20,000 bases of DNA from an uncultured virus (IMG/VR IMGVR_UViG_3300030049_000016) (IMGVR_UViG_3300030049_000016); one strand, 5' to 3'; numbered from the stretch's first letter, positions 10,371 to 20,000 are shown. Notes: generated by a model from the sequence alone, not told the origin. Translations and numbers: made by a program.

Positions 10371-11039
10371 ATGTTTACACAATCTGACTTCAAGCACTGG
10401 TTTCCTATCGAACAGACCCGTCATTACATCGCCGACATTATTCCCGATGGGGCGAAGGTTTTGGAAATTGGCGCCTGCCATATTCCATTTCCGAAAGCTA
10501 CGACATATGTCGATTATGTCTATGATCCCAAGATCGACAATGTCGTTTGTGATGTTACCAAAGAACGACTTCCTTTTGAAGACAAGTCATTCGACTTCGT
10601 CTATTGTCGGCACGTCATTGAAGACCTGTGGAATCCCTTCCTGGTTCTCAGTGAAATGCAGCGGGTGGCCAAAGCCGGTTACATTGAAACCCCATCTATC
10701 GCACAAGAACTTGCTCGGGGTGTCGGCGCCGGCTCATTTAACTTCCGAGGCCATTGTCATCACCATTGGTTCGTTTATAACGACAGTGGTGTGCTGAAGT
10801 TTATCAGCAAGCTTCCTTGGATCGAACACGTCGAGTTCGACGAAGAACAAATCGAACATATGCTTAAGACATACCCCATATACTGGAATACATACTTTCA
10901 GTGGACGGACAAGTTTGACTTTGAGCATGTCCAGGGTCAATATCCGATGTTGCAGAATGACATCATTTCTGGCTTACATGTCGGATACCAGAATGCAAAT
11001 GCTTTTACAGAGACAATCATCGATCACTATAAAGAATAA
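10371..11039 (+). CDS. Class I SAM-dependent methyltransferase (Methyltransf_11-like)
   Basis: Motif I 'KVLEIGA', 'LPFEDKSFDFVYCRHVIED', 'LSEMQRVAK.G'; SD GGAGG. Confidence 0.85.
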   Translation: MFTQSDFKHWFPIEQTRHYIADIIPDGAKVLEIGACHIPFPKATTYVDYVYDPKIDNVVCDVTKERLPFEDKSFDFVYCRHVIEDLWNPFLVLSEMQRVAKAGYIETPSIAQELARGVGAGSFNFRGHCHHHWFVYNDSGVLKFISKLPWIEHVEFDEEQIEHMLKTYPIYWNTYFQWTDKFDFEHVQGQYPMLQNDIISGLHVGYQNANAFTETIIDHYKE

Positions 11040-14317: not shown

Positions 14318-15496
14318 ATGCTTGAATTAATAGTAGATTACTTAAAATCAAATATAGTTGCTAGTGGTCTTATTGTAGGTTCAGTGTCCGGTTTTCTACT
14401 ATATATAATAAAAGGTATTCCAAAAGCTACATTTGATACTTTTTTAAAATATTTTTCTGTATCATTGACTGTAAGAAATGATGATCCTATATTTAGTGAT
14501 ATAGCAAATTATGTAACAAAACTAAGAAATAATGTAAAACATTTTCATTATTCTAATGATAAATATGAATTTAATGAAATAATTTATTCTGTAGATAGTA
14601 ATAGAATTGTTACTATAAATAGAATTACTGAAAATAATCAAATAAGTTGGGGTAGTGGTAAGAATAAGGTAGAGACGATTATCATAAAGTGGTATCTCAC
14701 AAGAAATACAAAGCTAATAACAAAGTTTGTAGAACAGTTAAAATTATCTAATGAAGATAGTAAAATGATAGATGTTTATAGTAGAAGTAATGATTATTTC
14801 GAAATCATTAAAAAGAATAAGAGAAGTATAAATTCTATTTATCTTAATGGTGATATATTAGATAATCTTTTGAGTGATATAAAATTATTTATATCTAGTG
14901 AACAAAAAGAATGGTATGTAAAGAGAGGTATTCCATATCACAGAGGATACTTGTTTTGGGGTCCTCCTGGAACTGGAAAATCATCTTCTATATTAGCTAT
15001 CGCTTCTCATTTTAACTTACCTATATTTTATTGTAATTTTAGTAACATACGTAGTGTTTCTGCATATAACAATAAAATGAAAATTGTAGTTTTAGAAGAT
15101 GTTGATACTTTGAATATTGGCAATAAGCGCGATAGTACAGACGATGTTGACAAACGCATATGCGATGATAAATCCAATGTTCCTCCTGAGCATAAAGATA
15201 ACAATAATGTTACACTTGTCTCTTTTCTGTCTTTAAGTGATGTGTTAAATGTTTTAGATGGTATCATTGCTCCAGAAAATTGTATTGTGATTATGACATC
15301 TAATCATCCTGAAGTTCTTGATAGTGCACTTATTAGACCTGGTCGTTGTGATGAAGCTATTAAGTTTGATTTATTAGATCAAAATACCGCAGATAGAATG
15401 AAGAAAGATTTTGATATGGATGACCTTGATGTGATAACTCCTATTTCGGCAGCTGCTTTACAAAATGAACTTCTTAAAGCAAGAAAAGTTCTATAA
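14318..15496 (+). CDS. BCS1-like membrane-anchored AAA+ ATPase
   Basis: N-terminal TM segment; 'WY..RGIPY.RGYL..GPPGTGKSS' Walker A; Walker B 'VVLEDVD'; 'LNVLDGI'; SRH 'MTSNHPEVLDSALIRPGRCD'. Confidence 0.9.
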   Translation: MLELIVDYLKSNIVASGLIVGSVSGFLLYIIKGIPKATFDTFLKYFSVSLTVRNDDPIFSDIANYVTKLRNNVKHFHYSNDKYEFNEIIYSVDSNRIVTINRITENNQISWGSGKNKVETIIIKWYLTRNTKLITKFVEQLKLSNEDSKMIDVYSRSNDYFEIIKKNKRSINSIYLNGDILDNLLSDIKLFISSEQKEWYVKRGIPYHRGYLFWGPPGTGKSSSILAIASHFNLPIFYCNFSNIRSVSAYNNKMKIVVLEDVDTLNIGNKRDSTDDVDKRICDDKSNVPPEHKDNNNVTLVSFLSLSDVLNVLDGIIAPENCIVIMTSNHPEVLDSALIRPGRCDEAIKFDLLDQNTADRMKKDFDMDDLDVITPISAAALQNELLKARKVL

Positions 15497-15863: not shown

Positions 15864-17669
15864 ATGTCAACGAAAGATGAAAAGTTACATGTACTAACGT
15901 GCTGTTTTAACCCAGAGAATTATAAAGTTCGATATAAGTTGGATCATGACTTTACTGAATATCTTAAAGATTTCCCTAATGTTATTCATTATAAAATCGA
16001 ACTGGCATTTGGCGATCAGGAGTTTGTAACAACATCTATTGATAATCCTAACCATATGCAATTACGTACAAATACTATTCTCTGGTATAAAGAAAACTTG
16101 TTAGAAATTCTACGTAAATCAAAATTACCTAAGGATTGTAAGTTTGCATGGATGGATGCTGATATTACTTTTAGTAATGTCAATATCATTAATGATACAT
16201 TATCAGCACTTAATGAAAATAGCATTGTTCATATGTTTGATAAGAAGATTAATCTCGGTCCTGATGAAGAAGAACTTAATAGTAGTACTGGTAGTATTGC
16301 TAAGTATATTAACACTAGTAATTTCGGCGGCGCGTCTGGCTTAGCATGGGCAGCAAATAATGAATTTATTAATGCAATTGGTGGACTTATCGATTGGTGT
16401 ATTATTGGTTCTGCCGACTGGTGTATGTCAGCAGCTATGCTAGATTGTTTATCTGAATTGGAGTATGATAAATATAATGAATACACCAAACCACTACTTG
16501 ATGCATGGCATGCTAAATTACAGGAAAATGATATTGGTGTAGGATATGTGCATGGTATATGTTATCATCATTTTCATGGTCATAAGAAGGACCGTGGGTA
16601 TGATTGGCGACATAATATTCTTATGAAACATGAGTTTGACCCTAGTAATGATTTACTTTATTTAGATAATGGACTATTGGATATTAGTGTAAAGAAAATG
16701 GAATTACGTAATGAATTGCGCGAATACTTCCATAGTCGCCAAGAAGATAACGATGTCGAAAATATACTACATGTAGTAACTACGGTATTCAATCCATCTG
16801 GTTATAATAGTCGATATTTTCTATATAATCAGTTTAAACGATATATGGCTAAATTTAAGAATGTTGTTCTTTATACAGTTGAATTAACTATTGGTGATCA
16901 GCATCATGTTGTAACAGATAACTATAATCCGCGTCATTTACAACTACATACTAACAATGTGTTATGGTATAAAGAAAATCTTATTAATGAAGGTATTAAG
17001 AAACTAATTCCTGCTTCAGCTAAAAATATCGCATACTTTGATGCAGATATGGCGTATTATGATGATAATTGGCCTATGTACATTGTTGATAAACTGAAAG
17101 AGTGTGATGTTGTACAATGCTGGTCGTCTTTGGATTTCTTAGATGAAAATTATAATGTATATAAAACACGTAATAGTTTTATGTCAGATTATATGTCTGG
17201 TCTGCGTCCATCTTTGGATAATCCATTGGGTCCTCCTGGTCTAGCATGGGCAATGACACGCGAAGCTTATGACAAGATTGGGAGAATTTATGATAAAAAT
17301 ATTGTTGGTGCTAATGATAGGGATTTCTGCCATATTCTTGTTAATGAACATTACCGAATGCCAGAAACATTGAATGGATATGATGAACTTATGAGATATA
17401 ACAATATTGTACGTGCTGCTAATCTATCATACGGATATGTCGACTTGGTCGCAATGCATTATTTTCACGGACATACAAAAGACCGTGGATATGGTGTACG
17501 AGATTCCATCTTAAATGACATTGATATATCACAAGATCTTAGTTATGATGAGAATGGGCTTCTTCAGATAGTTAACAATAAAGACCATATCTACTTAAAA
17601 CTAAAGAAATACTTCGATTCTCGTAATGAAGATGTAGGACATGTGGTAAAAGACGCTGCTGCTGAATAA
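15864..17669 (+). CDS. Tandem two-domain GT-A-type glycosyltransferase-like protein (601 aa)
   Basis: Two roughly 300-aa repeats, each with 'LHV.T..FNP..Y..RY', 'LWYKENL', DxD ('DAD'), 'GLAWA', 'G..D', 'H.FHGH.KDRGY..R', 'YF.SR.ED'. Confidence 0.75.
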   Translation: MSTKDEKLHVLTCCFNPENYKVRYKLDHDFTEYLKDFPNVIHYKIELAFGDQEFVTTSIDNPNHMQLRTNTILWYKENLLEILRKSKLPKDCKFAWMDADITFSNVNIINDTLSALNENSIVHMFDKKINLGPDEEELNSSTGSIAKYINTSNFGGASGLAWAANNEFINAIGGLIDWCIIGSADWCMSAAMLDCLSELEYDKYNEYTKPLLDAWHAKLQENDIGVGYVHGICYHHFHGHKKDRGYDWRHNILMKHEFDPSNDLLYLDNGLLDISVKKMELRNELREYFHSRQEDNDVENILHVVTTVFNPSGYNSRYFLYNQFKRYMAKFKNVVLYTVELTIGDQHHVVTDNYNPRHLQLHTNNVLWYKENLINEGIKKLIPASAKNIAYFDADMAYYDDNWPMYIVDKLKECDVVQCWSSLDFLDENYNVYKTRNSFMSDYMSGLRPSLDNPLGPPGLAWAMTREAYDKIGRIYDKNIVGANDRDFCHILVNEHYRMPETLNGYDELMRYNNIVRAANLSYGYVDLVAMHYFHGHTKDRGYGVRDSILNDIDISQDLSYDENGLLQIVNNKDHIYLKLKKYFDSRNEDVGHVVKDAAAE

Positions 17670-17703
17670 ACTCATAGAGAATCAGAAGTTATCGCACGAA
17701 GTG

Positions 17704-17735
17704 TAAGAGACTGGTGCGTGCGCACCAGTCTCTTA
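17704..17735 (+). terminator. Hairpin terminator (32 bp, 2-nt centre)
   Basis: TAAGAGACTGGTGCG-TG-CGCACCAGTCTCTTA plus TTACATTTTATTT. Confidence 0.75.
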
Positions 17736-17772
17736 TTACATTTTATTTAAACATAAGATCATATAAATATGA

Positions 17773-17789
17773 ATAATAGACTCTATTAT
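17773..17789. promoter_or_regulatory. 8-1-8 inverted repeat, operator-like
   Basis: ATAATAGA-C-TCTATTAT, just upstream of the structured element. Confidence 0.35.
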
Positions 17790-17812
17790 AAAATTATTCT
17801 AAGATAGAAGTG

Positions 17813-17905
17813 TTCGATTGCACGTGCCTGGAAAACACGCGTCTCAGCAGTGATGTGGCAATTGGCCTACAACAAGCACATCATCTAACGTACCAGGCAA
17901 TCGAG
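17813..17905. ncRNA. Candidate structured RNA (multi-stem junction with pseudoknot), family not recognised
   Basis: TTCGATTG/CAATCGAG closing stem; CACGTG/CACGCG hairpin whose loop CCTGG complements CCAGG (17893-17897); TGATGTG/CACATCA stem; GC-richer than flanks. Confidence 0.55.
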
Positions 17906-17976
17906 TAGGTGCTCACCATAATGTTGAGATTTTGAGCACTCAACTTTTTGAAGAATTAAACCAGAAGGATCAAAAA

Positions 17977-19104
17977 ATGCAGATCAAAGAAGCAATACAT
18001 AATCTATTTTTCAATGTGTTGAAATTAAAAGAGAATGATACTTTATGGTTAGAATTTGATAATCCTTCTGTTGGTAGTCTTATGGTTAATACTATTAAAA
18101 ATTTTAAACAGAACACAAATTTTAAAGTAAATTATGTTGATGTACAAGCTGATATTCTTAGATTATCTATATCTAAAAGTAATATTGAAGAAAGAGAATT
18201 TGTCGATGAGATGATGCGTAAGATGAAATTGTGTAATAAATATATAAGATTTGTTGACGATGGTGCTATTAGTCATTTTTGTTCTTTATATGAACAGTTC
18301 GGTATTAAAGAACTTGTTGGTAAAAGAAGAATGTTAATGTCTGAAGTTACTCGATATAGAGTTAATAATCTCAAGTGGGTAGTCTCTGTAATTCCCTCTA
18401 TACCATTAGCAAATTTTTATAAATGTGATTTTGATGAATTTTCAAAGATGATTATTGATGGTATTAATTTGAATTATGCAGAACTTGAAAAGTATGCAAC
18501 TCCACTTATAGATATCTTAAATCAAAAAGGTAAAACTGTTCGTATATATAGCGATGCTCGATTTACTGATCTTACATTCAAGCTATCTGGAGCTGGCACT
18601 GAACTTTGTGCTGGTAAGATCAATATCCCAGACGGTGAAGTATTTACATCTCCTGAATTAAATAGTGTCAATGGTACAATTATGTTTGGCCCTAGTTACT
18701 ATAATGGAGAATTCTTTAAATATATTTATTGTGAATTTAAAGATGGTGTTTGTTATAAATCTCTTGCAGAAAGTGAAGAGCGTACAAATGCTTTAAATAA
18801 GATTCTAGATGTTGATCCTGGAGCAAGAAAAGTTGGTGAATTTGCACTTGGGTTAAATACTAAAATCACTAAGTCGACAGGATTTGTTTTGACTGATGAA
18901 AAAGTATTTGGATCTATACATCTTGCTTTAGGTAAAGCTTATGAAACTATGTCGGATAATGGGAATAGATTGGCCAATCATTGGGACCTTGTTCACAATC
19001 AACAATTAAGATATGGTGGCGGTGCCCTTTATATCGATGGTGTTCTTATAAGAAAAGATGGATTATTTGTTCCAGAAGAACTTACACCTCTAAATACTTT
19101 ATAA
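17977..19104 (+). CDS. Peptidase M29 family aminopeptidase (AmpS/AmpT-like)
   Basis: 'NIPDGEVFTSP', 'GEFALG', 'DEK..G..HLALG.AY', 'HWD' supply the E/E/E/H/H/D metal ligands and the Tyr; SD AAGGA favours ATG 17977. Confidence 0.9.
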   Translation: MQIKEAIHNLFFNVLKLKENDTLWLEFDNPSVGSLMVNTIKNFKQNTNFKVNYVDVQADILRLSISKSNIEEREFVDEMMRKMKLCNKYIRFVDDGAISHFCSLYEQFGIKELVGKRRMLMSEVTRYRVNNLKWVVSVIPSIPLANFYKCDFDEFSKMIIDGINLNYAELEKYATPLIDILNQKGKTVRIYSDARFTDLTFKLSGAGTELCAGKINIPDGEVFTSPELNSVNGTIMFGPSYYNGEFFKYIYCEFKDGVCYKSLAESEERTNALNKILDVDPGARKVGEFALGLNTKITKSTGFVLTDEKVFGSIHLALGKAYETMSDNGNRLANHWDLVHNQQLRYGGGALYIDGVLIRKDGLFVPEELTPLNTL

Positions 19105-19107
19105 TGA

Positions 19108-20000
19108 ATGGCTATTGTAGAGGTACCAACTAAAGATTTAATGGAACTTAGATTACATACACAAGTTATGATACATCCTGGCAATGCACTTGGTATTAAG
19201 AGTGGCGGAATAGCAGATGCTTTTGAAAAAGAATATCCTAATTCTTTTGATATGTATAAAACAGGTGGATTTGTAGAAGGTACTTTTAGAGTAGGAACCG
19301 TTCTTGAAACTATAGAGAAAAATCATGTTATTCTTCATCTCATTACGAAAAATCATTATGGCGATGTTATGTCATATGACGATCTTAGAGTGTGTCTTAA
19401 TAACTTAAAAGACTATTTGTTAGATAATTCATTTATAGATAGATCAAAATATGTTTGTTGTATTCCTATTCTCGGGTGTTATAATAATCAATTAGATACA
19501 GATACTGTTGTTAAAATGTATTATGATATTTTAGATGATATACCAAATATAATTCAATTATGTAGACAACCAGAAAGTTATAATAGATTTCCTCAATATC
19601 TTGGTCTTTGTGGTCATATACGATTTAATAATAAGAAACTATTAAAAGTTGAATTATCTACTTTTATAAATAATGTATTTCCTACAGCACTTAAAGCCAT
19701 AGTGATAACAGATACGAATAATGATTTTAATAGAACAGTCGAAGACGTTGTTGATGAACTTAATATAAAACTTATTAAAGTACCAACAGATTTTAAACAA
19801 TTTAAAAAGAATGGTTTTTATATTAGAAATTCTATTATGTTTAATATTTGTACAGCATTCTTATCTATTAATAAAAACAAATTCTATTCGTCTTTATCTT
19901 ACTTTTTAGAAGAGAAGGTTGTTAAGTATAATAGAAACTGTGATGATCTCAGAGTTATTAAAAAATATAATGAACCAGATCTTTTTGTTCCAGATAGAAA
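19108..20000 (+). CDS. TARG1/DarG-like macrodomain fused to a degenerate YspA/SLOG-like domain (3'-truncated, not in ORF track)
   Basis: Frame open from ATG 19108 to the window end. 'HPGNALG..SGGIA..F...YP', 'LHLITK', 'SYDDLR.CL', 'PILGC'; then 'LGLCGHIRF...IVI...P.DF..F.K.G..IRN..M'. Confidence 0.7.
   Translation, partial: MAIVEVPTKDLMELRLHTQVMIHPGNALGIKSGGIADAFEKEYPNSFDMYKTGGFVEGTFRVGTVLETIEKNHVILHLITKNHYGDVMSYDDLRVCLNNLKDYLLDNSFIDRSKYVCCIPILGCYNNQLDTDTVVKMYYDILDDIPNIIQLCRQPESYNRFPQYLGLCGHIRFNNKKLLKVELSTFINNVFPTALKAIVITDTNNDFNRTVEDVVDELNIKLIKVPTDFKQFKKNGFYIRNSIMFNICTAFLSINKNKFYSSLSYFLEEKVVKYNRNCDDLRVIKKYNEPDLFVPDR

Follow-up and report, generated by a model that had tools for sequence, protein, structure and literature searches.

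What kind of element, if any, is formed by the GC-rich, helix-rich segment 17813-17949 that immediately precedes the gene of an M29 (aminopeptidase T-like) peptidase in the uncultured virus IMGVR_UViG_3300030049_000016? The segment lies near the end of the 20,000-nucleotide stretch of DNA analysed here (hereafter "the window"), whose coordinates are used throughout unless a genome position is specified. In the first-pass annotation it had been described as an unrecognised, pseudoknotted RNA endowed with a terminator/antiterminator-like switch and resembling a riboswitch or an attenuator, or else a free small RNA or a ribozyme. The explanation that we consider best, with a probability of roughly 45%, is that, in a jumbo phage of phiKZ-like and probably nucleus-forming type, the mRNA for the M29 aminopeptidase has a structured 5′ leader to which the segment belongs.

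The phage and the neighbourhood of the peptidase gene

The window comes from a 208-kb virus record of IMG/VR, and DNA nearly identical to it is present in many peat metagenomes. The PHROGs matches include several split RNA-polymerase beta subunits, the PhuZ tubulin, the tail sheath and also virion proteins characteristic of jumbo phages of the phiKZ type, so that, judged by its gene content, the genome is that of a phiKZ-like jumbo phage, probably of the nucleus-forming kind; among cultured phages, none exceeds 27% identity to it in an RNA-polymerase beta subunit. The motif TATATATTA occurs 46 times in the genome, with 28 copies in spacers and 43 of the 46 on the plus strand, usually in the form TTTCA..(A/G)ATATATATTAC...TG, and it matches the early-promoter consensus of phiKZ-type phages as tabulated for phiKZ (TATATTAC), 201phi2-1 and OBP in table 2 of PMC7058600. 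The conservation of this motif indicates that the divergent peat phage keeps the promoter of the virion RNA polymerase. The features surrounding the segment are the following.

1583, 3064, 4506, 8764, 9445, 12834 and 13513: copies of the early-promoter motif (motif map)
10371-11039: class I methyltransferase (PF08241)
14318-15496: BCS1-like AAA ATPase (phrog_7485, PF00004)
15864-17669: 601-aa protein, apparently a ~300-aa module duplicated in tandem
17703-17736, plus strand: strong intrinsic terminator of the upstream operon, with a 15-bp stem, a 4-nt loop and a T-rich tail (−25.5 kcal/mol)
17737-17812, plus strand: AT-rich spacer (~17% GC) containing TATAAATATG at 17762-17771 and AAAATTATT at 17790-17798
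17977-19104, plus strand: M29 (aminopeptidase T-like) peptidase gene, 375 aa (PF02073, E 3.4e-27)
19108-19998: phosphatase-like protein (phrog_335)

The earlier assignment of an M29 peptidase with its SD sequence and start codon directly downstream of 17813-17949 proved correct: AGAAGGA is found at 17963-17969, the ATG at 17977, and the product belongs to PF02073, its nearest relatives displaying 41% identity over 98% of the length. Since the phosphatase-like gene begins 4 nt past the peptidase stop, the two genes are probably co-transcribed. The terminator at 17703-17736, the sole terminator-like site reported by a scan of 17500-18100, delimits the peptidase transcription unit on its 5′ side.

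As to other genes of this phage, most of the 111 homologues of the 601-aa protein are 330-370 aa long and cover just 48-49% of it, a few relatives carrying glycosyltransferase family 2 (PF00535) or other domains. A 968-aa ORF (genome 80348-83254) is matched by terminase large subunit profiles only over its first ~130-250 residues, which also match DnaC/primase-like P-loop profiles; such a pattern may point to an interruption or fusion of the terminase gene, for instance by an intein or an intron.

Base composition, helix density and folding stability

The 93-nt core of the segment (17813-17905) contains 50.5% GC, compared with 32.4% genome-wide, ~17% in the spacer upstream of it and 30% in the downstream peptidase gene, whose GC3 is 0.17. 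A content of at least 50% GC is reached in just 2.9% of the 12783 intergenic 93-nt windows of the genome, which fall in seven spacers, five of them within the tRNA cluster. The persistence of a high GC content in non-coding DNA of an AT-rich genome suggests selection and, since the adjacent gene is fully AT-rich, the island is not simply recent foreign DNA. The only ORF crossing the core (17810-17908, GTG start, 32 codons) was rejected as a small protein because it has no ribosome-binding site, a GC3 of 0.53 as against a gene median of 0.20 and no tblastn match among 50,697 phage records.

The tRNA cluster itself (genome 122148-123039, 124241-124588 and 125582-125983) encodes six tRNAs according to ARAGORN, and a seventh, weak tRNA-like match is found at genome 125243-125319 (Rfam tRNA, 29.2 bits versus a threshold of 29). 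The cluster also comprises several hundred bases of GC-rich non-coding sequence lacking Rfam matches at E <= 0.1, which may represent further unannotated RNAs. Just before the GC-rich core of the peptidase leader the sequence TAAGATAG is followed by GTGTT (17800-17816), and a similar TAAGATAGTGTTG occurs at genome 122391, ahead of a GC-rich non-coding stretch of the tRNA cluster; the likeness between these two cases may reflect a shared start signal or chance.

Enumeration of the complementary segments recovered all the stems originally listed for 17813-17949. In the closing stem 17813-17820/17898-17905 seven of the eight pairs are of the Watson-Crick type and one is U-G, and the longest perfect helix at this place is 17814-17821/17897-17904 (8 bp); in the hairpin 17821-17826/17836-17841 five of the six positions pair, the sixth being an A-C mismatch. 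CCAGG (17893-17897) is complementary to CCTGG (17827-17831), and this complementarity extends to the 7 bp of TGCCTGG/CCAGGCA (17825-17831/17893-17899). The third stem, 17851-17857/17877-17883, has seven perfect pairs and is extended by a G-U pair at 17850/17884. Further downstream are GTGCTCA/TGAGCAC (17909-17915/17933-17939; 7 bp) and GTTGAG/CTCAAC (17923-17928/17939-17944; 6 bp), the latter being followed by TTTTT at 17945-17949. Overall, these 137 nt contain four perfect helices of at least 7 bp, whereas 2000 dinucleotide shuffles averaged 0.49 (P(>=4) = 0.001), and at least four such helices are found in only 0.3% of 1306 native 137-nt windows of the same genome with GC between 0.40 and 0.56, P values that are inflated by selection inasmuch as the region had been chosen by eye for its stems.

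The minimum free energy (MFE) of the core is −27.4 kcal/mol, which corresponds to a z-score of −2.19 on the plus strand, where 3 of 200 shuffles were as good, and of −1.79 on the minus strand. Once the flanks are added z falls to between −0.9 and −1.1, with 34-35 of 200 shuffles folding equally well. Moreover, z <= −2.2 was obtained for 19% of the 500 intergenic windows scanned (up to genome position 106,515, about half of the spacers of the genome), mostly owing to terminators. In our judgement, helix density and the GC island are genuine anomalies of 17813-17949, whereas thermodynamics alone would not pick the region out. The earlier claim that this is an unrecognised RNA candidate stands in so far as the segment is non-coding, helix-rich, GC-rich and devoid of Rfam matches.

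Fold of the core and the question of the pseudoknot

The structural elements of the leader, as found in the predicted folds, are listed below.

17813-17905, plus strand: GC-rich core domain formed by a long-range helix and an enclosed hairpin (MFE and centroid fold)
17908-17940, plus strand: hairpin S1, GGTGCTCA/TGAGCACT, eight pairs including one G-U, 17-nt loop (−9.9 kcal/mol)
17923-17949, plus strand: hairpin S2, GTTGAG/CTCAAC, 10-nt loop, then TTTTT (−5.5 kcal/mol), mutually exclusive with S1
17944-17968, plus strand: U-run CUUUUUG, which may pair weakly with CAGAAGG of the ribosome-binding site (−3.6 kcal/mol)

In both the MFE and the centroid fold the core consists of a nested long-range helix of 12-13 bp, made of 17813-17818/17900-17905 and 17825-17831/17893-17899 (P1b) with a 6-nt bulge between them, in which the 3′ strand CCAGGCAATCGAG (17893-17905) pairs continuously with the 5′ segments TTCGAT(TG) and (TG)CCTGG, the repeated TGC permitting a slip in register. 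The enclosed hairpin P2 (17850-17857/17877-17884) has 8 bp and a 19-nt loop, with a pair probability of 0.92-0.94, and P1b reaches 0.72-0.83 in long transcripts. On the other hand, the hairpin 17821-17826/17836-17841, which would present CCUGG in its loop and on which the proposed pseudoknot depends, has a pair probability of 0.01-0.05. With folding tools lacking a pseudoknot model, the CCUGG and CCAGG bases are predicted to be engaged in the nested 7-bp helix (0.72-0.83), and the pseudoknot that had been annotated would be possible yet unnecessary.

An alternative long-range fold, in which 17809-17817 pairs with 17932-17940 and 17841-17849 with 17922-17930, would dissolve both downstream hairpins. 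It is the MFE structure of a 186-nt stretch (−42.6 kcal/mol, compared with −36.3 kcal/mol for the centroid), but the pair probabilities of its helices are just 0.07-0.20, and long-range helices of such length, when G-U pairs are allowed, are by our estimate expected by chance. The closing helix of the core ends at 17905 and S1 begins at 17908, so that the core helix and the downstream hairpins do not overlap.

Downstream hairpins, U-run and terminators

Within the 3′ part of the leader the prevailing fold is S1 (probability 0.73-0.82), which ends 4 nt ahead of the U-run, whereas the pair probability of S2 is 0.01. Accordingly, read-through is the predicted default. The complementary segments for the two mutually exclusive hairpins of the original description are present, but the terminator role ascribed to S2 fell away: with its 6 bp, 10-nt loop, −5.5 kcal/mol and probability of 0.01 S2 does not qualify as an intrinsic terminator, and it is absent from the output of the terminator scan of 17500-18100. 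The clear plus-strand terminators of this genome have stems of 10-17 bp and free energies of −13.5 to −30.5 kcal/mol.

The U-run could also pair with the ribosome-binding site across an 11-nt loop, with a probability of 0.41-0.54; from this modelled pairing a regulatory role may be proposed. Leader hairpins in which a U-run masks the ribosome-binding site are characteristic of the fourU-type thermometers, and U-runs and purine-rich ribosome-binding sites very often pair by chance. The present leader is like those thermometers in that its U residues 17945-17949 can pair with AGAAGG and unlike them in that the pairing amounts to just −3.6 kcal/mol and closes an 11-nt loop.

Putative promoter, strand and transcript

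The spacer 17737-17812 contains no copy of the early-promoter motif, none being present between 13513 and 21215 on the motif map. Because the peptidase gene follows a strong terminator and has no early promoter nearby, it probably possesses its own, non-early promoter, which we place in this spacer. A single TATG is found there, at 17768-17771, where about 0.5 occurrences would be expected by chance in a spacer of such composition (estimate). The sections of PMC4666361 dealing with phiKZ promoters give a late motif TATG with G at +1 and a middle motif AAanTTACc near −24; by analogy, TATG and AAAATTATT resemble the late and middle motifs, respectively, and may be putatively assigned as promoter elements.

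It is context that favours the plus strand, since the neighbouring genes and the early promoters are all on this strand. Furthermore, the G-U pairs 17813/17905 and 17850/17884, which extend helices on the plus strand, are A-C mismatches on the minus strand. The opposite consideration, from which the strand had been deemed ambiguous, is that the A-C mismatch of the hairpin 17821-17841 becomes a G-U pair on the minus strand; this is true, but the hairpin lies outside the preferred fold.

In public sequencing runs the stretch is present in 18 DNA runs from peat and, in small shares, in six RNA runs, and the covered parts of three RNA runs and one DNA run contain no sequence variants. One peat RNA library yielded two 151-nt pieces, 17820-17970 and 17964-18114 (depth 2, devoid of information on ends or strand), the first of which spans the T-run and passes position 17949 by 21 nt. 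These pieces may be carried-over DNA; should they derive from RNA, a single transcript would cover both the leader and the beginning of the gene, with read-through of the U-run.

Search for relatives

The annotated lack of a family match was upheld: Rfam 15 gave no match in the whole window at gathering thresholds and, at E <= 10 over 17600-18100, none overlapping the core, the four matches obtained being all within 17693-17814 on the minus strand, far below threshold and mainly on the upstream terminator. One of these, to the ManX thermometer (17697-17756, minus strand, E 9.1), was dismissed as noise outside the element. ARAGORN detected no tRNA or tmRNA in the window, and on the basis of these results and those of Rfam a tRNA or tRNA-like identity was rejected.

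Comparison of 17670-17980 with 50,697 phage records by blastn in distant mode gave no match, and a short-word BLAST search of the phage's own genome returned only the element itself; a repeat or mobile element was discarded in view of this single copy and of the lack of related sequences or terminal repeats in the genome. Searches of IMG/VR via the peptidase, the 601-aa protein and an RNA-polymerase subunit retrieved only contigs that are 100% identical, in one of which the leader is the same base for base, and a pattern scan of IMG/VR with two anchors of the element found only the same phage. Among ~5.8 billion protein clusters the best non-self matches are 41% identical for the peptidase and 38% for the 601-aa protein, and with flanking proteins this distant a synteny-guided comparison is impossible.

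M29 genes elsewhere have no comparable leader: the distant homologues in two jumbo viral contigs are without any, and most of the 75 evaluable metagenome loci (80 in total) have less than 60 nt upstream. A covariance model built from the single sequence with its nested structure matched none of these 75 loci and none of the loci of 601-aa-protein homologues in genomes and IMG/VR; in the phage genome and 110 other loci (15 + 15 + 80; 300 kb, 116 kb and 263 kb) it matched only itself, and against the whole records of phiKZ, 201phi2-1, Proteus phage 10 and two jumbo IMG/VR contigs its best E was 2.2. A model derived from one sequence is insensitive, and these blank searches weigh little for this reason.

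Comparison with known leaders

The closest known counterparts are found among the phages of the same type. The relevant parts of Putzeys et al. 2024 (PMC10914365) describe 17 short structured RNA candidates of phiKZ with ends in 5′UTRs, two of them confirmed by northern blotting, and those of PMC11512511 report 11 sRNAs of 201phi2-1, eight of which come from 5′UTRs; in the portions of both reports concerned with their origin, such 5′UTR-derived ncRNA candidates are attributed to premature termination inside leaders. The element discussed here, known from its sequence, shares with them the kind of phage (split multisubunit RNA polymerases, PhuZ and a TATATTAC-type early promoter), a size of less than 250 nt, a structured fold, a hairpin and U-run within the leader and a position after a promoter region (putative in the present case) and before the ribosome-binding site of a gene. 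In fact, it occupies, in a phiKZ-type genome, a leader between a terminator and a ribosome-binding site. It differs from them in having no similarity of sequence or structure (the covariance model giving a best E of 2.2 in the whole-record search), in preceding an M29 peptidase gene instead of one of the tail protein gp182/gp277 family and in carrying a terminator much weaker than those of its own phage. By analogy, the element is best filed as a sequence-unrelated candidate among the structured 5′UTR RNAs of phiKZ-type phages.

With the transcriptional riboswitches it has in common a multi-helix 5′ domain and two exclusive hairpins, one of them beside a U-run, upstream of a ribosome-binding site. 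Unlike them, it has no conserved aptamer, family match or ligand, its closing helix does not overlap the platform and its terminator hairpin is limited to 6 bp with a 10-nt loop and −5.5 kcal/mol. The literature on jumbo phage riboswitches and phiKZ promoters yielded no described riboswitch of jumbo or phiKZ-type phages.

Alternative explanations

The segment could be an ordinary spacer in which several inverted repeats have come together by chance, without any function that depends on structure. A z-score that shrinks to −0.9 to −1.1 when the flanks are included (34-35 of 200 shuffles being as good) and that is at or below −2.2 in 19% of the 500 scanned intergenic windows is what such a spacer might give, as are alternative long-range pairings of a length which, with G-U pairs, we estimate to be that expected by chance. 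Furthermore, no homologue, second copy or Rfam match emerged from the collections searched, the region was picked by eye among many windows, and a per-window P of 0.001 is not rare in a large scan. The composition is harder to reconcile with chance, in that a 93-nt block of 50.5% GC stands beside a spacer of 17% GC, the 50% level is attained by 2.9% of the windows, mostly in the tRNA cluster, and the AT-rich adjacent gene (GC3 0.17) shows that the island is not simply recent foreign DNA; likewise, only 0.3% of native windows of comparable GC contain at least as many helices. Overall, a chance origin appears unlikely, while deserving serious consideration. A DNA-level element (a site for protein binding or for recombination) or a relic (what is left of a lost gene or mobile insert) would account for the palindromes GCACGTGC at 17820-17827 and CAATTG at 17859-17864, for a composition unlike that of the surroundings and for the roughly equal folding of the two strands (z of −2.19 and −1.79). 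Yet the sequence is present as a single copy, without terminal repeats or relatives in the genome, it resembles none of the 50,697 phage records either as DNA or as a 32-aa peptide, and the cumulative GC skew has no inflection across the window, all of which leaves this explanation only a slim chance.

Two further readings accept a functional RNA but not a simple leader. A GC-rich island within an AT-rich spacer is a hallmark of RNA genes, and the other islands of this genome are mostly tRNAs; when to this are added a hairpin with T5 at the 3′ end and the short intergenic phiKZ transcripts documented in part of PMC10914365, such as a 141-nt RNA upstream of PHIKZ302, a free-standing gene for a trans-acting small RNA, reaching from the AT-rich spacer as far as the U-run at 17949 without being tied to the peptidase gene, comes into view. 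That its terminal hairpin is far weaker than the terminators of the phage and has a probability of 0.01, that a piece from the RNA library runs 21 nt beyond the T-run and that no target or homologue is known make such a gene decidedly improbable. In a riboswitch, or another switch sensing a ligand or a protein, the core would be the aptamer and the exclusive hairpins the antiterminator/terminator platform. The succession of a multi-helix core, two mutually exclusive hairpins and a U-run, all ahead of the ribosome-binding site, is suggestive of this organisation, and so is the competing full-length fold (MFE −42.6 versus −36.3 kcal/mol for the centroid) that would dissolve both hairpins. Nonetheless, no Rfam family is matched even at E <= 10, no conservation was seen across 80 metagenome loci and 15 viral loci of M29 homologues or in five whole phage records, no nucleotides are shared by closing helix and platform, the S2 terminator hairpin is very weak (−5.5 kcal/mol), the alternative pairings reach only 0.07-0.20 and an aminopeptidase offers no rationale for a ligand. 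We hold such a switch to be highly improbable, and the riboswitch, attenuator and ribozyme readings of 17813-17949 are unsupported. As regards the attenuator, transcription and translation are thought to be spatially separated in nucleus-forming phages, a separation that would rule out ribosome-coupled attenuation.

A possible pathway and its meaning

If the segment is a structured leader of the peptidase mRNA, transcription would probably start in the AT-rich spacer past the terminator 17703-17736, at a non-early promoter that would be read by the non-virion RNA polymerase of the phage itself. The initial ~95 nt of the transcript would then fold into a rod, with the bulged 12-13 bp helix enclosing the 8-bp hairpin, to be followed by a second hairpin (17908-17940) and by the U-run, whose weak pairing with the ribosome-binding site would partly mask this site. 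The fold would presumably act after transcription, through protection of the 5′ end or tuning of translation, and a minority of the transcripts may stop at the U-run to give a 5′UTR-derived small RNA of ~140-180 nt. In this sequence of events the helices, the unusual composition and the location between terminator and gene are observed, as is the lack of a known family; promoter, strand and every functional step are offered as proposals.

A bolder version, which we rate as very improbable, is that the element represents the first member of a new class of sensing-leader RNAs in a nucleus-forming jumbo phage, its bulged rod being an aptamer for a metabolite, a peptide-derived signal or a phage protein. 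Were this true, the leader would switch on binding from one to the other of two folds, one allowing read-through and one terminating or masking the ribosome-binding site, so as to time or dose the auxiliary aminopeptidase, and the lack of homologues would reflect the poor sampling of this lineage of peat phages rather than an absence of function.

At present the element is a single orphan candidate whose value lies mainly in its being a target for end mapping and structure probing. If real, the structured leader of the M29 aminopeptidase mRNA would add a sequence-unrelated example, from a very divergent uncultured peat lineage, to the structured 5′UTR RNAs of phiKZ-type phages, and would suggest that in these phages auxiliary genes such as that of an aminopeptidase are subject to post-transcriptional regulation.
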